Source of the DNA: an uncultured bacterium
GTDB taxonomy: Bacteria; Zixibacteria; MSB-5A5; GN15; FEB-12
Reading direction: 5' to 3'
NCBI GenBank assembly: GCA_965372795.1
Contig: CBDVDR010000016.1
Coordinates: 1 to 64,000, forward strand
Length of the DNA: 64,000 nucleotides
Each line of letters begins with the position of its first letter. Position 1 is the stretch's first letter. Below are positions 38,734 through 64,000 of the stretch, piece by piece. The notes beneath the pieces were generated by a model. The model was not told where the DNA came from. It saw only the letters and a list, made by a program, of their open reading frames with translations, and searched no databases. The position numbers were made by a program, and so were the translations under genes.

Positions 38734-38807
38734 GGGGTTGTAGTTCAGTTGGTTAGAACGCCTGCCTGTCACGCAGGAGGCCGCGAGTTCGAGTCTCGTC
38801 AACCCCG
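38734..38807 (+). tRNA. tRNA-Asp(GTC); integration site, CCA not encoded
   Basis: GGGGTTG/CAACCCC acceptor stem, CCTGC-CTGTCAC-GCAGG anticodon arm, GTTCGAGTC T-loop. Confidence 0.95.
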
Positions 38808-40271
38808 CTTAATTTTCAAATTGCCCCCTTCAGCAAATATGTTGAAGGGTTTTCTGTATGTAACACAAAGACTTCCATCATCAATTGTACAGTTCGAAAG
38901 TAAGTATTTGAGCAAGTGTCTTCGATCATCGTTTGATTGATGTAAGTACAAGTCATATGCTTGTTTTGCAAGTTCGATAATCTGGCTACCCATTTCGAGG
39001 TATTCATGATTTGCATGACGATGTTTGGAAATCTGTATTTCAATTTGGCGAAGCTCAGTATTCCACTCATAGGATTTTCTTTTCCAGAAATCTTCATCAA
39101 TTAAACCATTCAACCTATCTTCATATGCTTTCTCCTGATAGCCTCTGATACGATCGTAACGATTTTGTAAGGATTTTATAGATTTTCTTTGAAACTCTTC
39201 CTTGTCTGAGTGACTTTCACGAAGAGCAGCTTTCAACCCCTCAGCAGCTTTTGAAGATAGTGATATTCGCTTTACTACTTCACCAAATAATTCACTGAGC
39301 CTATTTTCTTTTACTGAGTTTTTACATTTACCTTTAAACTGAGTACATCGATAATATATATACTTACCTTTTTTGATATCAGGTGTCATAGAGCATCCAC
39401 ATCTATCGCATTTGACAAGTCCTCTAAAAGCAAAGTTTCGTTTTGTCATTTTTGGAGTTTTCCCACCATTCAAAACTTGTTGTACAGCATTGTAGAGTTC
39501 AACTGATATGATTGCTTCATGGATTCCGTTTTCATATAAAACATTCTTGTACTCAAAATACTTACCTGTATAGATTTGATTTTTGAGAATTCGATGAATT
39601 CCTGCTTTGTTGATTTTCTTTCCGTTCACAGACCTCAAGCCTAAATTATATGCGAACTCTTCCAAAAACTTGAGAGAATAGCGTCCGGTAGCATACTCTT
39701 CAAAAAGTCTTGCCACAAAAGGAGCTTTTTGAGAGTCTACATAAATCAAATGGTCTTGTAAATTTCTCATATATCCAATTGGAGATTTTGATGGCCACTG
39801 ACCAAGAGAAGCTTTTTTATTCATACCTTTCTTCACTTCTTCGGACAAATTGTCTATATAATTCTTTGCCATGAGAACCTTGATGCCATGTACAAACTTC
39901 GAATGAGATGAACTTTCACTTGAGATAATCCCACCTTCTTTGACAAGATGAACTATAGTATCCAAATCTTCAAGATCAACAAAATCTCTGAAGTTGCGAT
40001 AGAGTCGATCAGTTTTTTCAACCAAAATTGTTCGAACAAATGGATTAGCTTTTATAAAGTCGATCATCTGACCATATTGAGTTCGACCTACTGATTTTGC
40101 TGTCTCCTCATCAGTATATTCGTGCACAACCTCAAAACTATTCGTTAGTGCATAATCTCGTAACAAGTCGAGTTGTGCATCTATAGAAAATCCTTCCTCA
40201 GCCTGCCGCTCAGAGGAAACTCGTGCGTAAATAACTGCTTTCTTTTCTATTTGTTTCTGATATTTTTTCAT
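38799..40271 (-). CDS. Large serine recombinase (resolvase, recombinase and Zn-ribbon domains)
   Basis: YARVSS catalytic motif, DRLYRN, PIGY, CDRCG...YYRC...C, coiled coil; stop codon lies inside tRNA-Asp. Confidence 0.95.
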   Translation of the reverse strand: MKKYQKQIEKKAVIYARVSSERQAEEGFSIDAQLDLLRDYALTNSFEVVHEYTDEETAKSVGRTQYGQMIDFIKANPFVRTILVEKTDRLYRNFRDFVDLEDLDTIVHLVKEGGIISSESSSHSKFVHGIKVLMAKNYIDNLSEEVKKGMNKKASLGQWPSKSPIGYMRNLQDHLIYVDSQKAPFVARLFEEYATGRYSLKFLEEFAYNLGLRSVNGKKINKAGIHRILKNQIYTGKYFEYKNVLYENGIHEAIISVELYNAVQQVLNGGKTPKMTKRNFAFRGLVKCDRCGCSMTPDIKKGKYIYYRCTQFKGKCKNSVKENRLSELFGEVVKRISLSSKAAEGLKAALRESHSDKEEFQRKSIKSLQNRYDRIRGYQEKAYEDRLNGLIDEDFWKRKSYEWNTELRQIEIQISKHRHANHEYLEMGSQIIELAKQAYDLYLHQSNDDRRHLLKYLLSNCTIDDGSLCVTYRKPFNIFAEGGNLKIKRG

Positions 40272-40302
40272 GGATCATATTACCGATATTATCCGCTATA
40301 TG

Positions 40303-40518
40303 TCAACGGATATTTTTTTTGGTTCCTTTCTCTTTTTTCTTCCATTCATGTAAAGTTGTAAAAAAACCAGCAACGTTTGTGTTAATTTCATCGGTGCAGT
40401 CAACAGATATGTATTCTCTTGATAAAATACTCCAATGAAATCGGCTTGATCTCAAGTTCTGCTTCAAAGTAGATATTGAACTATCACTCAACCTATCTTT
40501 TGTTTGCTTTCGAGTCAT
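40303..40518 (-). CDS. Small hypothetical protein directly upstream of the recombinase (candidate directionality factor)
   Basis: AAGGAG RBS, overlaps the end of the Rep-like gene; function inferred from position only. Confidence 0.5.
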   Translation of the reverse strand: MTRKQTKDRLSDSSISTLKQNLRSSRFHWSILSREYISVDCTDEINTNVAGFFTTLHEWKKKEKGTKKNIR

Positions 40519-41683
40519 AGGAATTCTCCTTTCTTGAATTCAGCTTATTGTCTGAGATGAAATCTATATAAGACTGCAATAAGTTTTTGATATCCTGTGG
40601 AACTTGATATACACCTTTGTCAATACGAGTAACCAGCCCTTGATTGAGAAGTTTGGCAAGAAGGTACTTGGATGAGTTATTGGCTATCACTCTACCAGTC
40701 GTTGCAAGGAGAGATATCAACTTTATAAACTGTGGATGATTTTTACACGCACGACTCAGATTGTAGAGGATTTGCCCCTTATCTGACTGTCCCGCCAATG
40801 CGGATTGAGATTGCTCAAAAAATTTGAGTATATTTGTGATTGATCGCTGATACCAGCAATCGATAATATGGTCGAGAGTCACTATGGTGTTCGATCCAAT
40901 CACAGAGGTGCCAACAAGTTCTCGGATACGCCTACTGTTGAGTAGAGTTTCTACTCGCAAGGAGTCGACAAATTTCGGATAAATCATTATTCTCTCATTC
41001 TTCAACGGAAAAGCGGCAAGTCCATAGGAATTACGAGTTATTTTATCTCGTGGTAATAGTACTGTATAAGGCTTTGCTTCGTTATTTTTGAACATAGATT
41101 GAAAGAGCTTACGGTTTTTTTCAGTAAATAAGATCGCATCTTCTATGAACATATCCCAATAAAGTTCAAGATGTGTAATAGATATTGAGGGTTCTGTAAA
41201 GCTCAAATTATTTGAGGTTGAAGACTGCTTCATGATTTCAACGATAGATCCAAGTAAATCTTCGAGAGTATTGTGTAGTAACGACCTTGTTTCAGCTGCC
41301 AGAATCGCTCGATCATGAGTTGTGTATAAATCCTGAGGTAAAAAGTTATCATTATCATCCAATGATTCTAAAGTCAAGAAATTGAATGATTTATGCCTTA
41401 GTATACGAGTAGGATTGATTGTGACATCCATAAACAAGGTTACAGAGTTTGTGGTTCGATTGTGATAAAGTTTCATTTCTGCCAAAATTCGGTTTTGACG
41501 TCTTGTACGGAGTTTCAAGAAGGCATATTTCTGATAGCTATGTCTTATAGTGAAGAGATCGTTACCAAGATTTACAACAGTCCTTGCGAATTCATCTGAG
41601 TTCATCCCAGCAGCCGAAAAACCAGCGACTTTCATCTGTACCTTATCTATCATGACCATCTCGGATCTGAGAATATCAATCAT
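40493..41683 (-). CDS. Putative rolling-circle replication initiator/relaxase (Rep_trans or gpII/X-like) with C-terminal wHTH
   Basis: ITHLELYWD, MIYPK and LRVE resemble the RxD.xD / YxK / RxE motifs; LLNQGLVTRIDKGVY wHTH. Confidence 0.45.
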   Translation of the reverse strand: MIDILRSEMVMIDKVQMKVAGFSAAGMNSDEFARTVVNLGNDLFTIRHSYQKYAFLKLRTRRQNRILAEMKLYHNRTTNSVTLFMDVTINPTRILRHKSFNFLTLESLDDNDNFLPQDLYTTHDRAILAAETRSLLHNTLEDLLGSIVEIMKQSSTSNNLSFTEPSISITHLELYWDMFIEDAILFTEKNRKLFQSMFKNNEAKPYTVLLPRDKITRNSYGLAAFPLKNERIMIYPKFVDSLRVETLLNSRRIRELVGTSVIGSNTIVTLDHIIDCWYQRSITNILKFFEQSQSALAGQSDKGQILYNLSRACKNHPQFIKLISLLATTGRVIANNSSKYLLAKLLNQGLVTRIDKGVYQVPQDIKNLLQSYIDFISDNKLNSRKENSYDSKANKR

Positions 41684-42081
41684 GACAAGAATCTTTCAAT
41701 GTAAAATTTTTGACGTAAAATACATCTATAGTATAAAGGTGAGACCATTGACTTGTTGTTTAATGCGATTAGCATAATAGTTATAATTTGGCACAAAACA
41801 TTATCTCCTTATCCAACAAAATGTTACGAGATTCATCTTCTTCTCTTAATCTATTGTACAACTACCTAAGTTGACTATAAGTAGAGTTAGTTAGTAAGCA
41901 TGATATTTTTTTGTTATGCGATTTCAGTCAGGAGAATGGAGTTAAAAGGACGCATTATTTGCATAGCAAACCGCTCATGGACTTATTAAACAAGTGTCGG
42001 CTCGTCGCATCGGGTTGAGACAGAAACTGCCTCAGCGACCTTGCATTTGAATCTATCAATGCATCCATACAAGATTAACCT

Positions 42082-42118
42082 AATGATACTTATAGTCCGT
42101 AGACCTATAAGTATCATT
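42082..42118. promoter_or_regulatory. C-box-type operator (14-bp inverted repeat) upstream of the XRE controller gene
   Basis: AATGATACTTATAG-TCCGTAGAC-CTATAAGTATCATT. Confidence 0.75.
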
Positions 42119-42155
42119 GGATTATCCTACATATATCTTAATTGATTGGTAATAG

Positions 42156-42383
42156 ATGATGGATGATCCAAAGATAAAATTCGGAAAAATGGTAAGACAG
42201 AAACGACTTCAGTGGAATTATTCTCAAGAAGAACTTGCTCATCGTTGTGATCTCGACAGAACTTATATTGGTGGAGTTGAACGAGGAGAACGCAATATAA
42301 GCCTAATAAATATTTGTAAAATTGCCAAAGCTTTGAATACTACACCCAAAACCTTACTCGACTTCGGTAAAATCGAGTATTGA
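42156..42383 (+). CDS. XRE family HTH regulator, R-M controller (C protein)-like
   Basis: SQEELAHRCDLDRTYIGGVERGERNISLINI. Confidence 0.9.
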   Translation: MMDDPKIKFGKMVRQKRLQWNYSQEELAHRCDLDRTYIGGVERGERNISLINICKIAKALNTTPKTLLDFGKIEY

Positions 42384-42478
42384 ATTTAATTATTGTGTAT
42401 TTCGAAAAATTCCTTCAAAAGACCTCATAGATTTTTAATTAAATAAACCTATAGATTTATATTTTCCGCTTGTATGGA

Positions 42479-42498
42479 ATGTTGACTATAAGTATCAT
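42479..42498. promoter_or_regulatory. Second (single) C-box-like operator
   Basis: ATGTTGACTATAAGTATCAT shares CTATAAGTATCAT with the upstream operator. Confidence 0.6.
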
Positions 42499-42534
42499 AT
42501 TGTAAGCGCAAACTAATATATGAGGGTATAATCG

Positions 42535-43233
42535 ATGTTTTTAAAAGTACTTTTAATATCAATAATTTTATTGATTAATATTCCATTTTCTGGATATTCA
42601 CAGACAAAATTTATTGAAAATCGTAAAAAGTTAGAAATCGCAGTAAATGAAAACATATCTACACATTACTTATTCAAAAATTGTCAACTTCAGGATGATA
42701 ACAAATGGTTAAGTATTGAACTAAAATCAAAAACTTGGAAGAATCCTAATGACACAAAAGCTCTAATTGATTCTATCATAAAAATTACTAAAAACTTTGC
42801 ACCGTTTAGTGCTAATAAAAATTCGGAATTTCAAATTTATATTGATGAACCTAAAAGTGGATTCCCTATAGCAACTGTACGATCTTATTCTACAAAGACC
42901 TACTATGATTATTCATTTTCTGAGTGGCAAACGAAAGCTAAAGAAAAGTTATTCGGAATAAGGCAATCTACTCAGTATGTTTCAGAAGAAATAAAGTTTG
43001 GCAGGCCAATAATGTCAATGTGGTCTGGTGTTAAGCTATATTATGGATCTGGCTCATCAAAAAAGTTTGTTGGTAAAATAGTATGTTTTAGTGGTGATCT
43101 TGTTATGATCAAATATCCGTCTGGGTCTATAGAATCGAAATACAGAAGCGTAATTATAGACTTGAAAGGAAAGTGGTATATTGACAAGAATGATCCTGCT
43201 TTAAATGCGATGGAGTACTATACTTGTGACTAA
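42535..43233 (+). CDS. Secreted hypothetical protein
   Basis: Signal peptide; GAGGG RBS. Confidence 0.6.
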   Translation: MFLKVLLISIILLINIPFSGYSQTKFIENRKKLEIAVNENISTHYLFKNCQLQDDNKWLSIELKSKTWKNPNDTKALIDSIIKITKNFAPFSANKNSEFQIYIDEPKSGFPIATVRSYSTKTYYDYSFSEWQTKAKEKLFGIRQSTQYVSEEIKFGRPIMSMWSGVKLYYGSGSSKKFVGKIVCFSGDLVMIKYPSGSIESKYRSVIIDLKGKWYIDKNDPALNAMEYYTCD

Positions 43234-43391
43234 TAACACCAAATTGAGTTTGCCAATTATTATTTTTGAATTTTTTATCTTTTGCCCTTATAAATCGCCT
43301 CATATTTACTTAAACAAATGTGAAACTATCCACTTTACAAATCCTTTCTTACCGCTTATTTTTATGTAATTGTACCACAGGAGCTTACGTA

Positions 43392-44036
43392 ATGATCGAG
43401 TTGTTTCCGGTTGATAAAGTCAACCAAATGAGATGCAAATTGGAAACAGCCAGAGCTCCGGCAGGTGATACTCTTAAACAAAATGGATGGCACAAGAGTG
43501 ACCTGTCACCAAATGTATTACTGGAAACGCTTGAAAGTCTTTGGCTTAAAGAAGGATATACACTTCGAGGATACTTATATAAATCAGGTGAAAACGGAAA
43601 CGGCATTGTTTGGGCAATGCCAATCGACTCACCTTTTCCAGAACCTTCAGAGTGCACCAGTCTTACCGATCAGTTTCTTGAACCACCAAAACCAGAACAC
43701 GCTCTTGATGATTTCATGGAAGCAATTGATGGTGATCACACAGCTTGGTCATACATGTGTTCCTCAATCCTTGGCCGAGAATTACTTGAGTTCGGTGCAA
43801 GATGGCATGGCTGTGAATGGAGTTATGAAAGGATTGTATCTTTTAAGAAGTTATATAGAATATGTAGGTTAAAACCAATAACTGATAAATCTTTCATTTA
43901 TAATCCAATTGTAATTATAAATCAGATTGTAATTTGTTCTTTATTTACTATTCATGAGCAATATGGTTTTATTAAGGAGAACAGAGACATTTACCAGAAA
44001 GGGAATTATGAAAATAATAATAACGATCAAAAATAA
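43392..44036 (+). CDS. Hypothetical protein
   Basis: AGGAG RBS; GENGNG...ELLEFGARWHG segment. Confidence 0.6.
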   Translation: MIELFPVDKVNQMRCKLETARAPAGDTLKQNGWHKSDLSPNVLLETLESLWLKEGYTLRGYLYKSGENGNGIVWAMPIDSPFPEPSECTSLTDQFLEPPKPEHALDDFMEAIDGDHTAWSYMCSSILGRELLEFGARWHGCEWSYERIVSFKKLYRICRLKPITDKSFIYNPIVIINQIVICSLFTIHEQYGFIKENRDIYQKGNYENNNNDQK

Positions 44037-44065
44037 TAAAATTTGGGATAAATATTATACCTTAA

Positions 44066-44911
44066 TCAACTTACTCGAATAGTTATTTTTTTTGATTTCA
44101 TATTCCTCATAAAATTACTAATATGCCTTAAACCATCTATAAATGCATACCTACATTCTCTATAAGTTTTATGTGCATCTTTTTTCGATCTTGGAGCATG
44201 AACAGCTGGATTACCAAAATCACTTACAAAAGATTTCATCCCTCCAATAATAGCAGAAGTATCGCTAAACTGTCTGGCATCATTCATGTCATTCAAAATA
44301 TCCGCTAAATCTTTTGAAAGAGTTGAAGTAGTTAGCCAATCTTTTTTGATACTTGATTTAACAGCACTTTTGACCATTTCTTCAATAAGGATTCGGAGAT
44401 CACCTACACCTGAACGAGGATCATTTTGATATTTATCAAATGCATCAAGTACCCTTACTTTGACTTTACCTTTAATGTCCTTTGTTTTTTCGTTAAATTC
44501 CTTTCCTTTTATATGTTGAACTAAAGGTACAGTTGACTCTTGAAATTTCGCATCACCATTATCATCTACTATTATTATTCCATATCCATGAGATAATAAT
44601 TTCTTGAATTCTGCTTTATTTTTTTTATCGTTGTATAGCCCTTCAGTACATACACAATAAATTTCAATTGGTATAGTTACTTCTATGATATCAGCCAAAT
44701 ATAATTTAAAAACTGTTGGGTAAGGCATTTGAGATACTTCAGCAACTAAAATTCTTTTTCGAGTAGTTTCAAAATGTAAAGCAGGTGCCCAATCGATCTC
44801 ATGTGAGATCGGTTGCGATACTTTTGGTTGTGTTTGGAATCGCTCACTTAAAAATTTATGAGCAGAATTGAACAAAAAATCATCTCCAGATGATAAGCCC
44901 TTGTATGACAT
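44066..44911 (-). CDS. Hypothetical protein, restriction-endonuclease-like N-terminus and HEPN/DUF4145-like C-terminus
   Basis: LVAEVS, YGIIIVD segments; LIEE...GNPAVH; last gene of the MTase-ParB operon. Confidence 0.45.
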   Translation of the reverse strand: MSYKGLSSGDDFLFNSAHKFLSERFQTQPKVSQPISHEIDWAPALHFETTRKRILVAEVSQMPYPTVFKLYLADIIEVTIPIEIYCVCTEGLYNDKKNKAEFKKLLSHGYGIIIVDDNGDAKFQESTVPLVQHIKGKEFNEKTKDIKGKVKVRVLDAFDKYQNDPRSGVGDLRILIEEMVKSAVKSSIKKDWLTTSTLSKDLADILNDMNDARQFSDTSAIIGGMKSFVSDFGNPAVHAPRSKKDAHKTYRECRYAFIDGLRHISNFMRNMKSKKITIRVS

Positions 44912-45877
44912 TTACTTGCCCCCCAAAATTCTCTGGAGGAATTCTCTAAGATTATTTAATTTTTCAACAAATTCATCATCCAATTGAGAGACAAGATTCT
45001 CCTTCAACAAAATATCAAAATAAGCGTTTAAGTGATCAATTTGACTGATTGCCTTTTTTTCATCATAACCAAATTCTACTGTCCTTTCATACACCTCACG
45101 AATGCCTACTTCATTATTGGAATTGAACAAACTTTTCAAAGCAGATTCAGCTTGAGACTTTTTGATACCGATATTATCGATTGCAGTAGCAATTTTGGAT
45201 AATTGCCTAAAATCTGTAACAGCTCCAATTGTCCCTTCACGGTACTTGTCAATAAGCGTATTTCTTATTCCGTCAATATTGGATTCAAATTGAGGAAGTC
45301 TTTTGGTAATAGTCTTGAGAGACCGTTCCATTTCAAGAAAGAAATCCTCTGTAATTTTCTGACGAGATTTAGGAAGCTGCAATTCTTCCATCAACATTTG
45401 CTCAAACTGTGGAGGCATCTCCATAAGTAATTGGCATCTACGTATCTGCCCTCTTGTAAGACCAGTCTCTTTACTCAACTCTATCTCATTTGGTGGGTAC
45501 CCTTTTTCTTCTGTAAATAAATCAATAATTCGTCCTAAGTTTTTTGCAATTGTAAAGTAATCCCACTGTTCTCGAAGTGCGTGAATATTCGACATCAACA
45601 ATAAGTTTTCTAATTCTGAAGGACGATCCTGTATAATTGCTGGGATTTTATCAAGAGCAAGTTTTATTGAACATCGCCATCTTCTCTCTCCATCAATGAG
45701 AAAGTACTTGTCTTTATGTTCAAAAACTGAAATTGGAACTTGAATACCATGTTCAGAAATAGACACCATAAGGATCTCCATTTCTTCTTGACGAAAAACC
45801 ATTCTTGGATTTTCAGGGTTTGGCTGAATATCTTTAGGTGATATTTGCTTTAACCTTTTTATTTTTGTTTTATCCAT
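44912..45877 (-). CDS. ParB/Srx N-terminal domain protein
   Basis: PNPENPR, SISEHGIQVPI, LIDGERRWR. Confidence 0.85.
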   Translation of the reverse strand: MDKTKIKRLKQISPKDIQPNPENPRMVFRQEEMEILMVSISEHGIQVPISVFEHKDKYFLIDGERRWRCSIKLALDKIPAIIQDRPSELENLLLMSNIHALREQWDYFTIAKNLGRIIDLFTEEKGYPPNEIELSKETGLTRGQIRRCQLLMEMPPQFEQMLMEELQLPKSRQKITEDFFLEMERSLKTITKRLPQFESNIDGIRNTLIDKYREGTIGAVTDFRQLSKIATAIDNIGIKKSQAESALKSLFNSNNEVGIREVYERTVEFGYDEKKAISQIDHLNAYFDILLKENLVSQLDDEFVEKLNNLREFLQRILGGK

Positions 45878-47108
45878 ATGCTCTCCTACCCAATATTAAC
45901 AACTCCTTTGCGGAGTATTTTCCATATCCTTTTGAAGCACCCAGAGTAGAGTGCTCTATATCAACTTCGTTAGTAATCTCAACTGAACGATACTTTTTTT
46001 TCATAAGTTTGGGAAGTTGTTCTTTCGCATTCGGTAATAATCCTACTTCAGGATAACTGATAATAAAATCTGATCCAATTCCAGCGACAGAATCTATTAA
46101 ATCAGTAAAAGCGTTCATTACTTTTGGAGAACTACAAAAAGGTGACTGAAATCGATCCCCCCTATACCTACCAACTCCTGATGCTGTTGGATAGTCGTAT
46201 AGTATCAAGGTTTCATACAGATGATAATATCTGGAATATTGGTCATTAGTATAAGGAGGGTCAGCGTAAACAACAGCAGGTTTAATTTTATAACGCATCA
46301 TTTTATTCACGAGTTCAAGTGCATCTTCATTAAAAACTCGATTGGTACTTCTCCAATCTGCCCAACCAATAGGAACCAATTCATCAATCGCATCTAACCA
46401 GTGAAGCCATACTGATTTCTTTCTTTGATTTACAAAATGCCTACAATTATTATCCTTTATTTTGAGATATTGTGCGAAATGTCCAGTTGTTGTAGAAACC
46501 TTACAAGTAGCTTGGCAAAGTGCAAGTATCCACCATCGATGTAAATCTTGATCGATAACTCTATTCTCTCTAAGAACATCAATAGAATATCTAATTGAAT
46601 CTATCTCGATAGCCTGTTTTAAGCCTATATACCCACCAGCAAATGTGATAGAGAATAAACGATATGGAAACGTAGATGATTTTCTTTTGAGTCTTTTACT
46701 TTCAGACTGAAGTTTTGAGTCATTACCAACATGAGGTAGCTGGCTGTAAAAGTCTCCAAAACTCTCAGGACTTGAGGTTACCAGTTCTTCTAATTCTTGA
46801 TCAATATATTTTACAAACCTATTGTATAATTTTTCTTTATTCCTCTCAAAATTACTGTATGCTTTGTCGGCGGCTTCTATTGATGTCAAACTGATGTTCT
46901 TGGATTGAAAAAAAGCTTTTGCAACTGTAGATGCGAATACTTGAATATCATTACACCAAACTGATCTTTCAGTGCCTATTGATTCTCCAACAGCACATAC
47001 TCCTGAAAATAAGTCAAGAAAAGGACCTCTCTTCAAGTTATGTGTAATTTCAGCGATTGTAGGAGCTATCCTGCGCTTAGTTCCCATGTAACTTACCGAT
47101 ATTGTCAA
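45870..47108 (-). CDS. DNA adenine methyltransferase (D12 class)
   Basis: YMGTK, DLFSG, NDIQ, YADPPY, YSRYYH motifs. Confidence 0.85.
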   Translation of the reverse strand: MTISVSYMGTKRRIAPTIAEITHNLKRGPFLDLFSGVCAVGESIGTERSVWCNDIQVFASTVAKAFFQSKNISLTSIEAADKAYSNFERNKEKLYNRFVKYIDQELEELVTSSPESFGDFYSQLPHVGNDSKLQSESKRLKRKSSTFPYRLFSITFAGGYIGLKQAIEIDSIRYSIDVLRENRVIDQDLHRWWILALCQATCKVSTTTGHFAQYLKIKDNNCRHFVNQRKKSVWLHWLDAIDELVPIGWADWRSTNRVFNEDALELVNKMMRYKIKPAVVYADPPYTNDQYSRYYHLYETLILYDYPTASGVGRYRGDRFQSPFCSSPKVMNAFTDLIDSVAGIGSDFIISYPEVGLLPNAKEQLPKLMKKKYRSVEITNEVDIEHSTLGASKGYGKYSAKELLILGRRAYG

Positions 47109-47476
47109 TCAACCTCGCTACTCATTAAAATGGATAACTAACAACTTAATTTTATTAAAATACAAATGTAAAGGAGCTTTGTCAAGTCATCAAACCCCTC
47201 ATAACGATATAGTAATAAGCAACTTAAGATTAAGTTGAAGGATTGGATGAAAAACCTACTGAGTTATATTTATTCTGACTTATAAAACCACCTATAGAAT
47301 ATAACAATTTACAGAATCAGATCATGAAATTTTCAACTTTAAAAATAAACACAATTAAGATTTAAAAGGCAATTGCACAATACTACTTTTTACAATAATT
47401 ATTCTTACCTAATTAACATTTTATCTGAAATGTGAGATACTTTATTTTCTTTTTTTTAGGGATGCATATAGTATAA

Positions 47477-48466
47477 TTATGCTTTTTCACACAATTCCTT
47501 TTTCCATGTTAACTTCCCGAAGTAATCCAGGCACCACAAGCAAGGGTATGGATAGAGACAATTTTGATCCGACATGCTGCTCAACCTAACGCTTGTAAAT
47601 TTAGACAATAACTCATAATGGCGTGCAATACATTTTTCTAATCCTTCAACATTCACACTCCCCAACATCTCTTTTCCCATAATTGAGGGTTTATTTCCAT
47701 TACATACATGAGACAGATTACAGCAAAAAACTGCATTTCCCAAATGATCAATAGAGTATGATTGTTGATAAGCATTGCAATTAAATAAGGCACTATCCTC
47801 TCCCCAAGAACCCTCAATCATTATCTCTGTCTTGATGTTTGGAATAATGTCACTTTTAATGAATAAGAAGATTTGTTTCGTTTCCTCATGAGAGGGTAAA
47901 AGATTGTTCTCCAATAATCGTGGTGTAGGAACAAGAGTAAGAAACGAGTGTTGGTTTGCGCCTAACTTTGATCCCAAAAGAGCAATCTCTATAATCTCTT
48001 GTATATTAGCATTGGTCACTACTGTTTTAAAGCTTAACGGCAATCCTTGAAGTCGGCTGAGATTAGCTGCGTCAATTACTTCAGAAAATGAGTCATTTCC
48101 TCTTAAAGTATTATGTGAAGTAGGTGATGCACCGTCCAAACTTAGACATATACTATCTAAGTATCTTTTTACCATTGGATTGGACAATACTGGTAATGTC
48201 CTTTGTTTGAACTGATATCCGTTGCTCACAAAACTGAACTTCAGTTTTCTTTCTGCTAAAGCGACTAACATATCAGGCCAAGCAGGATGAAGTGTGGGCT
48301 CACCACCTGTAAGACTAATATGAGTTATTCCAAAACTATACGCACTATCTAATATTTCTATAAAGACATCCAAAGGAAGATGTTTTCTGGGCTCCAATTT
48401 ATCCCTCAGACAGTGAATACAATCACGGTTGCAAACATTCGTTAGATCTATAGATAAATCTGGCAT
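47477..48466 (-). CDS. Radical SAM protein with a Cys-rich (SPASM/twitch-like) C-terminus
   Basis: CNRDCIHC, LTGGEP, SLDG, additional C-terminal cysteines. Confidence 0.88.
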   Translation of the reverse strand: MPDLSIDLTNVCNRDCIHCLRDKLEPRKHLPLDVFIEILDSAYSFGITHISLTGGEPTLHPAWPDMLVALAERKLKFSFVSNGYQFKQRTLPVLSNPMVKRYLDSICLSLDGASPTSHNTLRGNDSFSEVIDAANLSRLQGLPLSFKTVVTNANIQEIIEIALLGSKLGANQHSFLTLVPTPRLLENNLLPSHEETKQIFLFIKSDIIPNIKTEIMIEGSWGEDSALFNCNAYQQSYSIDHLGNAVFCCNLSHVCNGNKPSIMGKEMLGSVNVEGLEKCIARHYELLSKFTSVRLSSMSDQNCLYPYPCLWCLDYFGKLTWKKELCEKA

Positions 48467-48483
48467 ATAATATAACTCTTCAA

Positions 48484-54377: not shown

Positions 54378-54420
54378 CATACATCAAAAAGTTGCGAAGA
54401 TCGTCTAATGAGCCCCGCCA
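54378..54420 (+). repeat. att-like site D
   Basis: CATACATCAAAAAGTTGCGAAGATCGTCTAATGAGCCCCGCCA, followed by a hairpin and T tract. Confidence 0.9.
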
Positions 54421-55187: not shown

Positions 55188-55613
55188 ATTACAATTATAT
55201 ATCATATTAAAAATAAAAAACAACCTCCTTATAAGATAATTTTTTGGCTCCCCCTAGTGCCAGCCCGCCATAACCACCGATCAGGCGTGTCGGGTGGGAA
55301 GGAAGTTCGCACATCACAGCTCGTAAATATTGTCATAATAGCAGCGGTTGCCGCCCTAATGTATGCCTGTAAAGTTTAGTATTCTCTTTTAAGGGTTCTT
55401 ATGATACTTCACAACTTATTGTTTTCCAACGATTTCCATTTAGTATTTTGAAACTTGTTGAAATTTCAATCTCGAATATCACAAAAGTTTTCTGAGAGTG
55501 ATATTGGCACCGCTTTTAAAAATCATTTAACTTCATGCGTTTACATCACAACCCTAAGTGCTTATCACATAAACTTCGAACTTTTACAGAAATATATTTC
55601 TCCACTTATCTCT

Positions 55614-58259: not shown

Positions 58260-58445
58260 TTGTTATTCCTTAATTAGAGAATCAATTAACCGCAACTGTA
58301 TTTTCCTTCAAAGCTTCCTACAATAAGCGACAGTAAAAGAAAGAGATAAATGTGGTTTAAACAAGTTTCAAAAATAGGAGTAAGTTATAAAACTGTTTTC
58401 CTTAAAACTCAATTGATTGAAAGTGTATTTATTAATTTCTTGCTT

Positions 58446-58488
58446 CATACATCAAAAAGTTGCAAAAGTTGTCCAACGAATCCCGTCT
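58446..58488 (+). repeat. att-like site E
   Basis: CATACATCAAAAAGTTGCAAAAGTTGTCCAACGAATCCCGTCT. Confidence 0.85.
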
Positions 58489-58680
58489 TTTGTAATTGCC
58501 TGTGTAGCACTACGTTACAAGCTCTCACTATTTATTTATTCATAATTTATTTAGACTTCTTTGTGTTCCAATCATAGATGTTTTCCTTGTTATTGTTTGC
58601 TTTAAAGGTCTAAATAATCTATCTTGTAATTAGTTAATAAGTATTGAATGCTATTGAAAAGTTAATGAGGTAGTCGGCCT

Positions 58681-61323
58681 ATGGCGGCAAACGAATTTGA
58701 TGATGACCAAACAAGATCGTTTACTCTATTAGTCGCTGGTACCAAAGTCTCGCATTACACAATCATCTCCAAGATCGGTGCCGGTGGAATGGGTGAAGTC
58801 TATCTGGCAGAAGATTCTCAATTAGATCGTAAAGTTGCCTTAAAATTCCTCCCCCCTCATCTCTCTCAAAATAAAGCCAGTCGTGCTCGATTTGCACGTG
58901 AAGCAAAAGCTGCCGCCAAGCTTGATCATCCAAACATTGTCCCAGTTTACGAAGTTGGTGAATTTCAGGACAGACCGTACTTCGCTATGGCGCATATTGA
59001 GGGTCAATCTCTCAAGGAAGTTATCAGGGAAGGAAAGCTAACAGTACCCAATGCGGTTGAATACACCAAACAAATATGTGAAGGACTTTATAAGGCTCAT
59101 GAATCAAATGTTGTACATCGTGATATAAAACCTGCCAATATAATTATCGACAATGATAATAAACCTCGCATCCTTGATTTTGGATTGGCTACAGTTCAGG
59201 GTGAAGAAAAGCTGACCCAAACCGGTTCAACATTGGGTACGGTTGGCTACATGTCGCCTGAGCAGATCACCGGCAAGAGTGTTGATCATCGCTCTGATCT
59301 GTTTTCAGTTGGAGTGATTTTATATGAAATGCTCACCGGACGACGTCCTTTTGAGGGCGACAACGATGTTTCTATTCTCAATGCCATAACCAGTTCGACT
59401 CCGGAACCGGTGGCTCGTTTCAAGTCTGGCGTTACAGGAGAATTACAACAAATTGTAAACAAAGCCCTCGCAAAAGATTCTTCCGTTCGCTATCAGCATG
59501 CTGATGGGATGCTTGCTGACCTGAAGGGTCTTAGCATAGAGTCCAAGAGCCGGGTGAAGAGAAAGCTTCCCCTGTGGATAGCTGTAACAATTGTAGCTTT
59601 GGTTTTAGGATTTTTCGGTCTTTCTCAGATACTTGACGAGCGCACTTTCTCCTCGGGGCCAACCAGACTCGCCGTGCTACCTTTTGGGAATCTGGGTGAG
59701 AGAGATAAAGACTATTTTGCTACAGGGATGACCGACGAAATCATTAACAAGCTTATCTCAATCAGAGATTTGAAAGTGATTACAAGACAAAGTGCGGGAC
59801 GGATGAAACAGGAGGGGATGGACGTCAGCCAGATCGGTAAAGAACTAGGGGTTGACTATGTTCTGGATGCTTCGGTTCACTGGTTGAAAAGCAGCAATGG
59901 TGCCAAGCGTGTTAAACTGGTAACACGTTTAATTAAAGTATCTGACGGGTCTGTTCACTGGGGAAAATCATATGATACGACCATGACAGAGCTTTTTGAC
60001 ATTCAAGCGGATATGGCCACAAGGATTTCCGAGCAACTTGGGGTTGTGCTTACTCCTCAAGAGAAGATCATTGTCGCGGGAAGAACCACGAACAGCGACG
60101 AAGCCTGGGATTATTTTGTTCGAGGAGATAGTTATTATAATGAAGACCCATACTCTGAGAAATATCTTAACCTGGCTCTGGAAATGTATAATAAAGCTAT
60201 CGAGACAGATTCTGGTTTTGCCAAAGCCTATACGCAAAAATCGCGAATGTACACCCGATTATATTTCTACAACATCAATGTAACCGATTCCATTAAGTCG
60301 CTTTCTTGGGAAATGGCTAATAAGGCAATTGAAGTCTGCTCTGACCGCTCTTCTGATCACGAAGGTCACATGGCCCTTGCAAATTACTATTATCGTTGTG
60401 AAAGAGATTATGAGAGAGCCTTAGAATCGTTGGATAAGGCGTATGTAGGGATCGGCGGAAAGGATAACGCAGGATATCATCATTTTGCTTCTACTTACTT
60501 ACGTCGTATGGGAAGATGGAAGGAAGCCTACAAACATGGAGCAATCGCCGCCGAAATGGAACCGAAAAACTTCCACTTACACAATGAGCTTGGTGGCACA
60601 CTCATCTTGATGCGGAAATACAGAGAAGCGGAAAAGTCTTTTCGAAAGGCAATCGCGCTGAAACCTGATTATTTTGTGCCGTACGAAATGTTGACTGAGG
60701 TAAGTATCAGTTGGCAGGCTGATACCGAGAGGGCGCGGGAAATCATAGAATCTTCATGGCATAAAATTGAAGATACCGCTCGCTGGGGGGATTTCATGAT
60801 AACTCTTAACGGAATGGAAGGGGATTTTGAGGCCGTAAGAAACCATGCCAATTCATACTCGGATAAAGCATTGTTATATGATTGGCAGGATATTACAGAT
60901 TCTGCTGTAATTTATTGGGATTCAGCTCTGATTGAAAATCAAGAAGAATTAAAGGATAAAACGCTGACTCCCATCCAATGGGGTAGCCTTGGAAAATTGT
61001 ATGCTCGTATGGGAAACCGTAAAGAAGCAATAAATCATATTAATAAAGCATTGGAATTGATGCCTATGTCGAGGGATGCGCTTGACGGAACTGATCATCT
61101 GATTCAGCTTTTCTATTGTTATGTTTTCTTCGGCGAATTTGAAAATGCTAACAATCAAGCTGAGAAGATTCTTCAAGTCCCTGCCTATTTTGATATTGGA
61201 CAACTCTTATTGGATCCCGACACACGTAAATTTATCAAACATCCAGGCTTTGCGCGCTTGGTTAGTGAGTATGGCAATGAATATCATAAACGGCTTTATA
61301 TAGAAAAAGTCGGACAGTTGTAA
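58681..61323 (+). CDS. Hanks-type Ser/Thr protein kinase with TM, TolB-N-like and TPR domains (cassette E-F)
   Basis: GAGGMGEVY, VALK, HRDIKPAN, DFGLA, YMSPEQ; LAVLPF; TPRs. Confidence 0.92.
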   Translation: MAANEFDDDQTRSFTLLVAGTKVSHYTIISKIGAGGMGEVYLAEDSQLDRKVALKFLPPHLSQNKASRARFAREAKAAAKLDHPNIVPVYEVGEFQDRPYFAMAHIEGQSLKEVIREGKLTVPNAVEYTKQICEGLYKAHESNVVHRDIKPANIIIDNDNKPRILDFGLATVQGEEKLTQTGSTLGTVGYMSPEQITGKSVDHRSDLFSVGVILYEMLTGRRPFEGDNDVSILNAITSSTPEPVARFKSGVTGELQQIVNKALAKDSSVRYQHADGMLADLKGLSIESKSRVKRKLPLWIAVTIVALVLGFFGLSQILDERTFSSGPTRLAVLPFGNLGERDKDYFATGMTDEIINKLISIRDLKVITRQSAGRMKQEGMDVSQIGKELGVDYVLDASVHWLKSSNGAKRVKLVTRLIKVSDGSVHWGKSYDTTMTELFDIQADMATRISEQLGVVLTPQEKIIVAGRTTNSDEAWDYFVRGDSYYNEDPYSEKYLNLALEMYNKAIETDSGFAKAYTQKSRMYTRLYFYNINVTDSIKSLSWEMANKAIEVCSDRSSDHEGHMALANYYYRCERDYERALESLDKAYVGIGGKDNAGYHHFASTYLRRMGRWKEAYKHGAIAAEMEPKNFHLHNELGGTLILMRKYREAEKSFRKAIALKPDYFVPYEMLTEVSISWQADTERAREIIESSWHKIEDTARWGDFMITLNGMEGDFEAVRNHANSYSDKALLYDWQDITDSAVIYWDSALIENQEELKDKTLTPIQWGSLGKLYARMGNRKEAINHINKALELMPMSRDALDGTDHLIQLFYCYVFFGEFENANNQAEKILQVPAYFDIGQLLLDPDTRKFIKHPGFARLVSEYGNEYHKRLYIEKVGQL

Positions 61324-61354
61324 AAATTCCCTAAGATCAAGGTACGTCACTGAT

Positions 61355-61397
61355 CATACATCAAAAAGTTGCAAAAGTTGTCTAATGAATCCTGTCT
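61355..61397 (+). repeat. att-like site F
   Basis: CATACATCAAAAAGTTGCAAAAGTTGTCTAATGAATCCTGTCT. Confidence 0.85.
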
Positions 61398-61636
61398 TTG
61401 ACCTATATGCTTGACAATTGTTGAGCATTTTTTTGTAAATATACAAAGGCATAAACCGATTTGGCGACATTTTACCCCCATAATTTGTGTTTGTTTTTAT
61501 TGGCTATATTACTCATTTTATATATTGAGAATACGAAAAAACAAAATAGAAATATTTTAGCCTATGGTGACAAACAGTTTTGATGATGTTTCCAAAAATA
61601 TTTTAAATTTTTATTTTGAAAGTATGATCGTGAGAC

Positions 61637-63913
61637 ATGAATAAATTTTTACAAAAACAATTTGGTTTTCAACAGATTGAAATAAAAAAACTCAACGGCT
61701 ATGAGAATCAAAACTATCTGGTTAAAAGCGAACGCGGGAAATATGTTTTTAAAACATATCTCAAAAACAGAGAATTGTTAGCACTGATTGAAGCAGAGAA
61801 TGAAACACTTTTATTTTTGCAAAACAGTAAGAGTGAGAAATTCCCCAAACCAATTCAATTTACAGATGGCAGTCTGGTCAAAAATCTTAAAATAGACGGA
61901 AAAGAACGAATATGTAGAATGCTCTCTTTCCTTGATGGGCATTTATTAGGAGAAGTAACCCACACAAAAAGCTTATTTCAATCTTTGGGAGCCTTTCTGG
62001 CTCAATTGGATAAACAACTTCAATCGTTCAATAGCTATACCCTCAAGGCAAGACAATGGGAATGGGGTGTTCAATACTTTCATTGGAATAAAAAATACAT
62101 TAAGGATATCGCAAGTGCGAAGAACCGAAGCATGGTAAGCTATTTTTTTCAACAATTTGAAGAAAATGTTGTTCCTATACTTCCTGAGTTAAGAAAATCC
62201 ATTATTCACAATGATGCCAACGAATGGAATGTTTTGGTGAATGATGGAGAAGTATCGGGTATTATTGATTTTGGTGATTTGGGGTACTCTCCACTTATTA
62301 ATGAATTGGCAGTAGCTATTGCTTATTCCTGTTTCGACAAGGAAAATCCTTTGGAATGGGCATCTACCATTCTAAAATCATATCACCAAATATTGCCGAT
62401 TGAAGAAAATGAAATAACAGTTTTATACTACCTGATAGCGGCCAGACTATGCACAAGTGTATGTAATTCTGCCTATTCAAAAAAACAAAATCCTGATAAC
62501 AAATATGCCTTTGTAAGTGAAAAATCGGCTTGGGGAATGCTCTATCGTTGGCTAAGAATCAATCCGATAGCAGCTGAAAACAGTTTCCGCATAGCGATAG
62601 GGTTGCATACTTTTAATCCGAAGTCAACTGACAAAATGATAAAAGAAAGACATGATATAGCGAGTCCTGTACTTGCTTTGACTTATTCGAAGCCGATTTA
62701 TATGACCGGGGCAGCTTTTCAATATATGTTTGATGCCTACGGGAATACGTACTTAGACGCATACAATAATATTCCTCAGGTCGGTCATTCACACCCGAAA
62801 GTAGTAGCGGCCGGTCAGAAACAAATGGCTGCACTCAATACTAACACAAGGTATCTCTACGATCTTTTACCTGAGTATGCTAATAAGTTATTATCTAAAT
62901 TCCCTGACTCACTTAACAAAGTATTCTTTGTTAATTCCGGGAGTGCCGCATGTGATTTAGCAATTAGATTAGCCCAAGCGCATACCGGGCACAAAAACAT
63001 TATGGTAGTCGAACATGGTTATCACGGTCAAACTCAGACCGGAATAGATATCAGCGCCTATAAGTTTAGCAACCAAGCAGGCCAAAGGCAAAAAGACTAC
63101 GTCCTTAAGGCAACTATTCCCGACACTTACAGAGGGCAATATACTACCAATGATGGCAGTGCCGGAAAATTGTACGCTACTGATGCGATTGTACAGATTA
63201 ATAATTCAGACTCACCAATTGCGGCCTTTATCAGCGAACCTATAGTAGGTTGCGGCGGACAGGTTCCTTTAGCCAGAGGATATTTAAAAGAAATTTACCC
63301 GGAGATAAGAAAACAAGGCGGAGTTTGTATTAGCGATGAAGTTCAAACAGGATTCGGACGTTTGGGAGATTTGTTCTGGGGATTTGAGGCGCAAGAAGTT
63401 GTACCTGATATTGTAATTTTAGGAAAACCTATGGGCAATGGTCATCCTATGGGAGCGGTAATAACCACAACAGGAATAGTCGAATCATTTAGTAAAGGGG
63501 TTGAGTTTTTTAGTTCATTTGGCGGTAATCCGGTTTCGTGTGCGATTGGCTTATCTGTTTTAGAGGTGATTGAAGAAGAAAAGTTGCAGGAAAATGCGAG
63601 GATAGTGGGTGATTTCTATAAATCACTTTTTATTGAACTTCAAAAAGAGTTTCCTTGTATTGGTGATGTAAGAGGTTCCGGTTTATTTATTGGTGTGGAA
63701 TTGATAAAAAATGAAAATAACTCAGAACCAGATACTCATTTAGCCAATCATATTAAAAACGAACTTAGAAACCGAAATATACTCATCAGTACAGATGGTC
63801 CTTTTGATAGTGTTCTTAAAACTAAACCTCCGTTGTGTTTTACTAAGGAAAATGCTCAACAAGTAACAGACCAGATCTATGAAGTGTTAAAAACATATTA
63901 CTGCAAAAGATAA
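61637..63913 (+). CDS. Aminoglycoside/hydroxylysine kinase-like phosphotransferase fused to a class III PLP aminotransferase/phospho-lyase (cassette F-G)
   Basis: IHNDANEWN and IIDFGD kinase motifs; [25 protein letters not shown] motifs. Confidence 0.88.
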
Positions 63914-63980
63914 ATGTCATTAAAAACAAGCATTGATTAGTTTTATTCAGTCATAGTAGAACACCTGATATATTTTGGGA

Positions 63981-64000
63981 ATACATCAAAAAGTTGCGAA
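63981..64000 (+). repeat. att-like site G (truncated by the window end)
   Basis: ATACATCAAAAAGTTGCGAA, identical to the corresponding part of site D. Confidence 0.85.

Follow-up and report, generated by a model that had tools for sequence, protein, structure and literature searches.

An array of small gene units downstream of tRNA-Asp in an uncultured bacterium, probably built by repeated integration of serine-recombinase elements

This analysis concerned a set of short repeats that follow a tRNA-Asp gene in the genome of an uncultured bacterium. At least ten small gene units follow the gene in a row, and each has half of an attachment site at its end; the array is a new example of the known piling-up of mobile DNA at tRNA genes. 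The repeats are probably junction sites of serine-recombinase elements that integrated at the 3' end of tRNA-Asp, accreting in tandem while the older units were reduced. On the best reading, these elements come from at least three recombinase/att families, and the older units have been cut to one or two genes and left without an integrase. The window analysed is a stretch of 64,000 nucleotides, positions 1 to 64,000 of contig C16 (CBDVDR010000016.1, assembly GCA_965372795.1), and the whole genome searched amounts to 3.35 Mb. The original prediction had described the array as integron-like, with cassettes captured in trans by the recombinase beside the tRNA; the observation itself was confirmed, and its interpretation was partly supported, capture in trans being the less likely reading.

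Layout of the array and structure of its sites

A profile made from copies A to F of the repeat and run against the genome (nhmmer) gave exactly seven strong matches, all on the plus strand of C16, with E-values from 3.2e-13 to 3e-6 (Table 1), and the next-ranking matches were on C7 (1.2e-4) and C8 (3.3e-3). All seven predicted copies are therefore real. None lies inside an ORF (those of at least 80 aa were checked), so that every copy is intergenic. Their coordinates give unit sizes of 10.79, 1.70, 2.56, 0.57, 4.07, 2.91 and 2.62 kb, in agreement with those first reported, and the predicted differences in base composition are seen in a per-kb GC content of 0.29 to 0.50 along the array. Three further same-strand sites, M1, M2 and M3, belong to a second arm family ('m2'). 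M1 and M2 split two of the units as first drawn, so that most units consist of a single gene.

A site consists of two parts, a conserved arm about 20 nt long and, after it, the final 8-11 nt of a tRNA. The cores of B, C and D are the last 8 nt of tRNA-Asp (tRNA positions 67-74), to which B and D add CA, while A, E, F and G carry diverged versions of the same end; both the match in B to D and the greater divergence of E and F had been predicted. The cores of the second arm family are merely tRNA-like. Three arm types occur in the array: type 2 at site A, type 1 at B to G, and the second family at M1 to M3. Sites A and B are followed by CCA, a T run and a terminator hairpin (at 49599-49651 for A), nearly the same as those after the outer site G, and the units therefore rebuild the same tRNA flank. 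Each unit is bordered by direct repeats that include the 3' end of the target gene, as is expected of accretion and of CIMEs.

The sites keep to arrays rather than being dispersed over the genome, a point on which the original prediction could have failed. Three profiles run on the whole genome found ten places in the C16 array, two in a second array on C7, one on C8 and one on C3, and a search with the core added two more sites to the C7 array. This second array follows tRNA-Asn and has the same arm joined to the tRNA-Asn end, which is carried by all four sites, 9.8-20.4 kb downstream of that tRNA on the same strand; its island also encodes a Rep-like protein. Taken together, these observations support the view that the repeats are sites of attachment type and belong with the 3' end of a tRNA.

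It is extremely improbable that the repeats are instead a regulatory or structural motif with no role in recombination, whether as promoter or operator in a regulon, as a small RNA, as the gene of a short peptide or as a REP-like element. Plus-strand genes do lie 98-485 nt downstream of sites A, B, C, E and F, and on the antisense strand a short peptide that contains a conserved stretch can be read. However, the sites of genome G143 are antisense and just 3' of genes, D and G have no downstream gene on the same strand, and the orientation of flanking genes relative to the sites is inconsistent. A start codon is missing from many copies, and neither strand offers more than short open frames. 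Rfam recognised only the tRNAs, the sites have no stable fold, and such a motif would not adapt its last 8-11 nt to the nearest tRNA.

Table 1. Features of the tRNA-Asp array (coordinates are those of the window and of C16)
Feature	Position	Strand	Basis
tRNA-Val(tac), upstream partner of target tRNA	38584..38657	+	ARAGORN, Rfam
tRNA-Asp(gtc), integration target and putative attL junction; CCA not encoded	38734..38808	+	ARAGORN, Rfam
LSR-A, large serine recombinase, 490 aa; stop codon within tRNA acceptor stem	38799..40271	-	Pfam, PDB matches, ortholog positions
Island-borne right arm and terminator hairpin for the tRNA; kept among LSR-A islands	38809..38856	+	sequence comparison
Cargo of 10.8-kb recombinase island	40493..48945	.	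Pfam, PADLOC
Degenerate site with tRNA-Asn-type end, within tRNA-Asp array	49436..49469	+	spotted by eye, placed by script
Site A (arm type 2), at far end of recombinase island	49553..49600	+	profile
Unit 2 gene, HI0933/BaiN-like flavoprotein	49835..51079	+	Pfam
Site B (arm type 1); then same terminator hairpin as A	51248..51296	+	profile
Unit 3 gene, 287-aa protein without Pfam family	51779..52642	+	ORF list, Pfam
Site M1 (second arm family)	52714..52753	+	profile, E 5.8e-8
Unit 4 genes, XRE-type HTH protein and 155-aa protein	52834..53498	-	Pfam
Site C (arm type 1)	53810..53856	+	profile
Unit 5 gene, 109-aa protein	53953..54282	+	homolog comparison
Site D (arm type 1), best-kept copy	54373..54422	+	profile, E 1.2e-12
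Unit 6 gene, nitroreductase	54672..55223	-	Pfam
Site M2 (second arm family)	55473..55516	+	profile, E 1.4e-9
Unit 7 gene, PEP carboxylase; sole copy in genome	55614..58259	-	Pfam, tblastn
Site E (arm type 1, diverged end)	58441..58490	+	profile
Unit 8 gene, Ser/Thr kinase with TPR repeats	58681..61323	+	Pfam
Site F (arm type 1, diverged end)	61352..61399	+	profile
Unit 9 gene, APH-type kinase fused to class-III aminotransferase	61637..63913	+	Pfam
Site G (arm type 1), to C16:64021 past window end; then A/B terminator hairpin	63981..64000	+	profile
Site M3 (second arm family), after one further unit beyond site G	C16:65391-65431	+	profile

Recombinases and inverted half-sites

LSR-A has the full set of large-serine-recombinase domains (Pfam Resolvase, Recombinase and Zn_ribbon_recom) and matches the TP901-1 and A118 integrases in the PDB, so the enzyme class had been correctly named and is not that of an integron integrase. 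The recombinase at tRNA-Asn on C7 has the same three kinds of domain. The LSR-A reading frame shares 10 nt with tRNA-Asp, and that of the C7 enzyme shares 40 nt with tRNA-Asn. Four large serine recombinases are present in the genome, each adjoining the 3' end of a tRNA (Asp, Asn, Ser-tga and Ser-gct); members of the LSR-A clade, that of the window included, adjoin tRNA-Asp in 11 of 12 loci, the orthologs lying at tRNA-Val/tRNA-Asp in 10 of the 11 others. Besides LSR-A, the 10.8-kb island carries four ORFs without a Pfam family, a ParB_N protein, a D12 methyltransferase, a radical-SAM (viperin-like) protein and a PqqD-like protein. As first reported, it is the only unit of the C16 array with a recombinase by Pfam, and tblastn with five serine recombinases gave no match at E<=1 across C16 49.6-70 kb.

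Of the arm types, only that of site A is linked to LSR-A, the proposed driver of the array, and the two types carried by the other nine sites match inverted half-sites of two other recombinase clades. Type 2 is the first site downstream of LSR-A clade members in three genomes and was not detected in six others (3/9 islands), and an inverted copy of site A's arm was sought beside the tRNA for LSR-A and not found. At the tRNA-Asn island, the 20 nt just 3' of the tRNA are the reverse complement of the arm of the distal site in 16 of 20 aligned columns. A third recombinase clade, at tRNA-Asp in six to seven loci, is followed after the tRNA by DNA that is the reverse complement of the second arm family (18/23); in three of its islands distal ends were not found within 40 kb. 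The arrangement predicted of an attP, two inverted half-sites round a short core, is thus seen in the sequences of the tRNA-Asn island and of the third clade, and judged on this basis the arms are half-sites of serine recombinases. When the small units were searched for inverted right arms without gaps, even the positive control reached no better than p=0.13.

The mechanism suggested by this anatomy is as follows. An incoming circle would bear an attP of two inverted half-sites round a short core copied from the 3' strand of the tRNA's acceptor stem. A crossover in the core would link the tRNA body to the element's right arm, which would provide a new tRNA end and terminator, while the displaced old end would fuse with the element's left arm on its far side; the last bases of tRNA-Asp would thus be supplied by the inserted island. 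The regenerated tRNA could be hit again and again, and since repeated integrations would push older elements outward, an internal site would consist of the newer unit's left arm and the older unit's right end. Read in this way, the C16 array would record at least ten integrations involving at least three arm families, with the 10.8-kb island, the sole unit to retain its recombinase, as presumably the newest. A difficulty for this reading is that attL is not a target of classical serine integrases, and re-entry at the same tRNA would call for permissive enzymes or for right arms able to restore a target-like site.

It is very unlikely that the arms are used by an enzyme of another kind, be it a tyrosine integrase like those of classical tRNA islands and tycheposons or an Xer-type enzyme of the host, with the serine enzymes as bystanders at a shared hot spot. 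An identity of 8-11 nt with the tRNA end, as found here, is more typical of the att sites of tyrosine integrases than of the 2-nt overlap of serine integrases, and sites persist in genomes where no homolog of either LSR-A or the tRNA-Asn enzyme is detectable. However, there is no Phage_integrase (PF00589) match on C16 or C7, the four in the genome being on C6 (two), C12 and C10, and the 69 ORFs of six other arrays include no recombinase by Pfam other than one DDE transposase. Two of the arm families, moreover, are mirrored as inverted copies immediately beside serine recombinase genes.

Other genomes, and accretion versus capture

Of 151 genomes in the order, 30 contain the arm pattern, compared with a single match for a reversed-pattern control, and six other genomes have same-strand clusters on single contigs. 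In G074 and G132 the sites are downstream of tRNA-Val/tRNA-Asp, and G049 has one site with a tRNA-Ser-like end. Two hybrid junctions of the kind that accretion should leave were recognised, one joining a type-1 arm to the third clade's right arm and recombinase tail (G001:C202), the other a second-family arm to an LSR-A ortholog (G012:C24). The presence of recombinase homologs does not track that of the sites: an LSR-A homolog is found in 12 of 30 genomes with sites versus 49 of 121 without, a homolog of the tRNA-Asn enzyme in 4 of the 30, and two complete genomes (G126 and G106) have sites and no homolog at E<=1e-30.

Integrase remnants, which the original prediction had named as a sign of eroded islands, were found beside junctions in three other genomes (G141, 106 aa, E 1.7e-10; G075, 98 aa, E 1e-4; G001, 37 aa, E 1e-12), but the 13 units without an integrase in the two arrays of this genome have none at E<=1. 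As the intergenic space is short, decay in these would have to have been clean. The small units are nonetheless most likely decayed, CIME-like elements, some of which may still be mobile with outside help.

It is rather improbable that the array is a cassette platform, in which the small units are non-autonomous circles, with a standard arm and a tRNA-end core, moved in trans by a resident tRNA-targeting serine recombinase; equally so that a captured right arm (CCA, T run and terminator) restores both the tRNA and a usable target, like attI in an integron. The 13 units lacking an integrase are consistent with such capture, being mostly single-gene, 0.57-8.5 kb long and without recombinase remnants, as is the flank that the A and B units share with outer site G. 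Arm likeness is also about 90% across three families of bacteria, versus about 65% DNA identity for orthologous genes. Unit 5 (the 109-aa ORF and its leader) follows a site of tRNA-Asp type here and one of tRNA-Asn type in G004, and the homology between the two begins directly after the core and stops at the stop codon. A weak hint comes from a metagenome contig that fuses a second-family arm, with a well-kept tRNA-Asp end, directly to sequence that follows site F here (depth 3, short side 22 nt, likeness threshold 85%).

Other evidence is against capture. The only sequencing runs found, which held about 6% of the sampled words, revealed neither circular junctions nor empty sites nor any gain or loss between strains. 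The recombinase fragments at junctions in other genomes favour decay, and recombinases and sites do not co-occur, a point that counts against accretion as well. Homologs of unit 4 and unit 5 are present without sites, in G005 (83% DNA identity for the unit 4 gene pair) and G074, respectively. The internal junctions, furthermore, are attP-like hybrids, and classical serine integrases do not recombine such pairs. A working gene-capture platform, inserting recombinase-free single-gene circles in trans at tRNA-Asp, tRNA-Asn or tRNA-Ser, is unlikely, and similarly doubtful is the version in which several recombinase clades serve it, each reading the T-arm and acceptor region of the tRNA. If true, the array could grow without limit, since the right arm would rebuild both tRNA and entry site, and it would be the functional counterpart of an integron, distributed through an order of uncultured bacteria. 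Tandem accretion with reduction of the older units is the preferred explanation.

Relationship to known systems

Integrons resemble the array in their fixed entry point, row of small, mostly single-gene units and conserved boundary site. In contrast to integrons, it has no attI or Pc and, judging from Pfam searches of the array ORFs and the genomic positions of PF00589 off C16 and C7, no IntI tyrosine recombinase, and gene orientation is mixed, with units 4, 6 and 7 on the minus strand and the others on the plus strand. Nor do the sites fold as attC hairpins: six of them folded as DNA (one on both strands) gave minimum free energies of -0.8 to -5.2 kcal/mol, with z-scores of -1.7 to +1.8 against shuffles.

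The original statement that no such system had been described was too strong, as tandem serine-recombinase islands with integrase-less units have already been published for Dehalococcoides ssrA (PMC3146451) and for SCC/ECC (PMC6222049). Among the ssrA islands (DsiB), some units without an integration module were proposed to be cis-mobilizable (McMurdie et al. 2011, PMC3146451). As described there, the islands also lie in tandem downstream of a small stable-RNA gene, with a direct repeat of its 3' end as border and a conserved motif, unlike the target gene, just 5' of the repeat, and a large serine recombinase gene runs into attL and the target 3' end, as it does here. The target there is tmRNA, however, and not tRNA-Asp or tRNA-Asn. 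The six-gene integration module reported for those islands, with a second, small serine recombinase (DsiA-like), was not found here, where the neighbouring ORFs have no Resolvase domain by Pfam. In comparison with that account, the present units are far smaller (0.57-4 kb, mostly one gene), and arms of at least three recombinase clades are mixed within one array.

In SCC/ECC, it is likewise large serine recombinases that insert the cargo, which varies, where a conserved gene has its 3' end, with repeated att borders and recombinase-less remnants, but the target is the protein gene rlmH, the enzymes are a CcrA/CcrB pair (CcrAB), the elements are tens of kb long and there is no mimicry of a tRNA end. 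Prochlorococcus tycheposons are cargo elements stacked at tRNA genes, parted by partial tRNA copies and with degenerate remnants deeper in the stack, and a large serine recombinase is present in a minority, 27 of 937 (Hackl et al., bioRxiv 10.1101/2020.12.28.424599). Most of those described have a tyrosine recombinase and a replication module, whereas the island in the window has no tyrosine recombinase, primase or helicase by Pfam, and the junctions are partial tRNAs there and a conserved non-tRNA arm with a short tRNA end here. Decay followed by accretion is a textbook route, according to a review (PMC5704250, citing Pavlovic 2004). The CIME/ICE/IME model outlined in it leads from integration, through integrase-less decay that keeps the att sites, to neighbouring integration and tandem arrays at tRNA 3' ends, as proposed for the present array. 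The cases described in that outline mostly involve tyrosine integrases and two to three large elements, whereas the array reported here consists of ten single-gene units.

The repeat sites and their tRNA-like cores

A profile of copies A–F, run over the whole genome (3.35 Mb in 69 contigs, the window being C16:1-64000), gave seven strong matches, all on the + strand of contig C16 (E-values 3.2e-13 to 3e-6), which confirmed the seven same-orientation copies of the original prediction at their places; the top matches outside C16 were on contigs C7 (1.2e-4) and C8 (3.3e-3). As had also been predicted, copies B, C, and D carry the final eight bases of tRNA-Asp at their ends. CA is added in B and D, and divergence is greater in A, E, F, and G. 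The copies are indeed intergenic, no ORF of ≥80 aa covering any of them, and the unit sizes first given (about 10.8, 1.7, 2.6, 0.56, 4.1, 2.9, and 2.6 kb) were correct. A second arm family, m2, was first spotted as two short conserved stretches in DNA matches to relatives, and its only good copies in the genome are the three listed in the table, found by profile in the same array, with a weaker fourth on C3. The m2 sites split the 2.6-kb and 4.1-kb units, which brings the junctions of the array to at least ten and leaves a single gene in most units. The unit genes specify a BaiN-like flavoprotein, a 287-aa protein, an XRE protein with a 155-aa protein (unit 4), a 109-aa protein (unit 5), a nitroreductase, PEP carboxylase, a Ser/Thr kinase with TPR repeats, an APH-aminotransferase fusion, and a Reg_prop protein.

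Features of the array, its surroundings, and related loci (positions without a contig name are those of the window; sites A–F are given by their start)
Feature	Position	Strand	Remark
Tandem repeats	1-270		14-nt (1-55); 9-nt (178-269)
Hairpin element	16703-16733		~31 nt, perfect
DUF3179 gene	37408-38460		directly upstream of tRNA-Val
tRNA-Val	38584-38657		ARAGORN
tRNA-Asp	38734-38808		ARAGORN
Large serine recombinase	38799-40271	-	adjoins tRNA-Asp
Island cargo	44912-48945
Degenerate site	49436-49469		tRNA-Asn-type end
Site A	49553	+	type 2 arm
Site B	51248	+	type 1 arm
Hairpin element	51502-51532		~31 nt, perfect
m2 site	52714-52753	+
Site C	53810	+	type 1 arm
Site D	54373	+	type 1 arm
m2 site	55473-55516	+
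PEP carboxylase	55614-58259		one-gene unit
Site E	58441	+	type 1 arm
Site F	61352	+	type 1 arm
Site G	63981-64021	+	type 1 arm
m2 site	C16:65391-65431	+
Multihaem cytochrome cluster	C16:66269-79829		downstream of array
Serine recombinase	C4:23600-25129		adjoins tRNA-Ser(gct)
Second array	C7:33900-54360		behind tRNA-Asn
Serine recombinase	C7:33934-35478	-	40-nt overlap with tRNA-Asn
Serine recombinase	C10:63807-66237		adjoins tRNA-Ser(tga)

Each site consists of a conserved arm of about 20 nt followed by a core of 8–11 nt, the core being a copy of the 3' strand of a tRNA acceptor stem, the discriminator base, and the first C. The pattern is present in this genome and in 30 of 151 genomes of the order, while the reversed-pattern control gave one match. 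A listing of all 46 tRNAs of the genome showed the core to vary with the local tRNA: the C7 match carries the 3' end of tRNA-Asn, a gene of the same strand located 19 kb upstream. Downstream of tRNA-Asn and on its strand, a core search placed four sites, at distances of 9.8, 10.6, 19.2, and 20.4 kb, each with the tRNA-Asn end. Among the other genomes, G049 has one site with a tRNA-Ser-like end, and G074 and G132 have sites downstream of a tRNA-Val/tRNA-Asp pair, oriented as in the window. The arms resemble a tRNA T-arm, which would fit one protein reading attB and attP half-sites alike.

Because the core tracks the local tRNA, promoter, RNA, and peptide readings of the repeats are ruled out. 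An antisense short peptide gene (a possible RiPP precursor for the nearby radical-SAM/PqqD pair) was rejected, the start codon being missing in many copies and the frames, of 13–100 aa, inconsistent; a sense-strand remnant of the C-terminus of a protein was also rejected, the open frames being short although the substitution pattern looked coding-like; and a promoter or terminator was discarded for its inconsistent orientation to neighbouring genes. As for a known RNA family, Rfam gives only the two tRNAs and Leu_leader at E 0.43, and the sites fold no better than shuffles (z -1.7 to +1.8).

Several other features were observed. The 15.7-kb contig C104 of G143 carries at least 11 same-strand sites with all three arm types, as well as a DDE transposase, and at three places among the positions listed an m2 site stands about 75–150 nt upstream of a type-1 site, a spacing at which the units between would be almost empty. 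The PEP carboxylase gene of the array is the only copy in the genome. A homolog in G012 (66% DNA identity; region C5:6808-9760) lies 130 nt after tRNA-Tyr, and about 95 nt past its stop codon the end of tRNA-Tyr is repeated over 10 nt with one mismatch, which may be due to chance (about 0.01 for that stretch). The DUF3179 gene consists of two ORFs covering profile positions 3-64 and 96-292, and is probably broken. The hairpin element recurs on C1, C2, C13, C20, and C27, and several more members of the order have it at >90% identity. The large cytochrome cluster has doubled CXXCH motifs and MtrC/MtrF-like domains, along with beta-propeller proteins.

Serine recombinases at tRNA ends and their predicted attachment sites

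The recombinase beside tRNA-Asp carries Resolvase, Recombinase, and Zn_ribbon_recom domains (Pfam), and tblastn with five serine recombinases as queries found nothing at E≤1 in C16 49.6–70 kb, bearing out the claim that only the first unit has such an enzyme. Orthologs (45–53% identity) adjoin tRNA-Val/tRNA-Asp in 10 of 11 loci of other genomes, and the post-tRNA flank with its hairpin is kept in the four islands of this clade that were compared. The C7 ORF adjoining tRNA-Asn is also a large serine recombinase (28% identity to the window's enzyme), for which a related-locus search returned a single distant match, and further paralogs adjoin two tRNA-Ser genes on C10 and C4, behind which the search gave no arm-type sites. 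The members of a third clade, with about 554 aa and 34–35% identity to the tRNA-Asn enzyme, adjoin tRNA-Asp in 6 of 13 loci. There is no tyrosine recombinase on C16 or C7, the four Phage_integrase matches of the genome being on C6, C12, and C10; C10 has a tyrosine recombinase ORF immediately upstream of its serine recombinase.

The key result of this analysis comes from tRNA-Asn, where the arm at the distal site of the island recurs, as its reverse complement, in the 20 nt after the tRNA end (16 of 20 aligned columns, one gap). Joining the two island ends rebuilds a putative attP, with two inverted half-sites around a 12-nt tRNA-like core, which is the geometry expected for a serine integrase. 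In the third clade, the post-tRNA flank is likewise the reverse complement of the m2 arm (18/23). The sites are accordingly described here as predicted att junctions of serine recombinases.

Pairing of arms with enzymes does not point to a single driver. The arm of site A is a third variant, type 2. In three genomes (at 10.8 kb here, 21.8 kb in G059, and 17 kb in G022), the nearest site downstream of a recombinase of the window's clade is of this type, and none was detected behind six further islands of that clade. The type 1 arms are nearest to those of the tRNA-Asn enzyme, and m2 pairs with the third clade, which this genome lacks; the distal ends of third-clade islands were not found within 40 kb in G021, G130, and G056. 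Checking every unit for an inverted right arm by ungapped comparison was uninformative, since the positive control failed. The proposed role of the 38799-40271 protein as driver of the entire array is not supported, as the enzyme is tied to one junction, site A, and no inverted copy of that arm was found beside tRNA-Asp. Sites showed no enriched co-occurrence with either recombinase: homologs of the window's enzyme occur in 12 of 30 genomes with sites vs 49 of 121 without, and those of the tRNA-Asn enzyme in 4 of the 30 with sites, so that the presence of a recombinase does not predict that of sites.

The cargo of the islands was also surveyed. In the window it includes a ParB_N protein with a D12 adenine methyltransferase as its neighbour, and a radical-SAM protein matching prokaryotic viperin models (E 1e-16) beside a PqqD-like protein, which may be defence cargo; PADLOC reported only a type II methyltransferase, a viperin-like radical-SAM match, and HTH matches. 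The second array begins with the 9.8-kb island of the C7 recombinase, carrying an IrrE-like protease with XRE, a Rep-like protein, two TIR-domain proteins (one ThsB-like), and a pentapeptide ATPase, followed by units of 0.85 kb, 8.5 kb (MacB/HlyD transporter and two-component system), and 1.2 kb (DUF4382).

Accretion or a cassette platform

If elements integrated successively at a tRNA, the left arm of the newer would be fused to the right end of the older. Two hybrid junctions match this prediction and argue for stacking: on contig C202 of G001, a type-1 arm and core are joined to a third-clade right arm and the last 37 recombinase codons, and on contig C24 of G012, an ortholog of the window's enzyme is fused to an m2 arm and core instead of to the tRNA. 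Recombinase fragments beside junctions in G141, G075, and G001 show units in apparent decay. The route would have three steps, integration, decay to a CIME, and accretion, such as are described in an IME review (PMC5704250), and tandem accretion with decay is the probable origin of the array, in preference to an active cassette platform of mobile one-gene units, which we regard as unlikely.

Some observations do favour mobile units. The integrase remnants expected of eroded islands, although seen in the three genomes with fragments, are absent from all 13 integrase-less units of this genome. The flank after sites A and B is nearly identical to the CCA-T-run-terminator after the outer site G, so that these units put the same sequence back behind the tRNA. 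Unit 5 is found again in G004, there behind a site of tRNA-Asn type, and the homology extends from the end of the core to the stop codon. In one metagenome contig, the sequence following site F is attached immediately to an m2-type arm; with a depth of 3 and just 22 nt on the short side, this is only a hint. However, homologs of unit 4 (G005) and unit 5 (G074) are without sites; a homolog of the unit 5 ORF is present in 5 of 151 genomes, and only the copies in the window and in G004 have a junction immediately before them (the upstream region in G139 is partly masked). Nor was any excision product or empty site seen in three public runs of one study, which contained only ~6% of sampled words and from which mostly relatives at <95% likeness were recovered. 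Comparison with G001, the one genome of the same genus and too diverged and fragmented for synteny, gave no DNA match over the 19 kb downstream of the array and only five short matches over the 11.8 kb upstream; the site-bearing contig of G001 matches other contigs of the window's genome. From the original interpretation, the att-type junctions and integron-like layout are retained, the named recombinase as driver is not, and active cassettes are less favoured than accretion with decay.

Significance and comparison with known systems

If this account is correct, a large share of the accessory genes beside tRNA-Asp and tRNA-Asn in this lineage, including the sole PEP carboxylase of this genome, came via serine recombinases, and the sites would map entry points of gene flow in these uncultured bacteria. 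Whether the one-gene units are still mobile would tell a mere burial ground of decayed islands from a second kind of cassette platform next to the integron. The occurrence of several clades on one tRNA target, with short defined arms, would also offer candidate natural attB/attP pairs, which are of use because large serine recombinases are in demand for genome engineering.

The layout of the array is like that of an integron, and no description of such a layout for tRNA-targeting serine recombinases was found in the open-access literature. The closest system is that of the Dehalococcoides ssrA islands, which (PMC3146451) are also tandem and bounded by a repeat of the 3' end of the target, with a conserved motif upstream of the repeat that is unlike the target, a CcrB-like serine recombinase gene running into attL, and integrase-less units, there proposed to be cis-mobilizable. 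Further precedents are SCC/ECC (PMC6222049) and the tycheposons, with a large serine recombinase in 27 of 937 elements (bioRxiv 10.1101/2020.12.28.424599). The arrays described here are distinct in their tRNA-Asp and tRNA-Asn targets, in their very small units, in the mixing of three arm families within one array, and in having a constant arm next to a core that varies with the tRNA.
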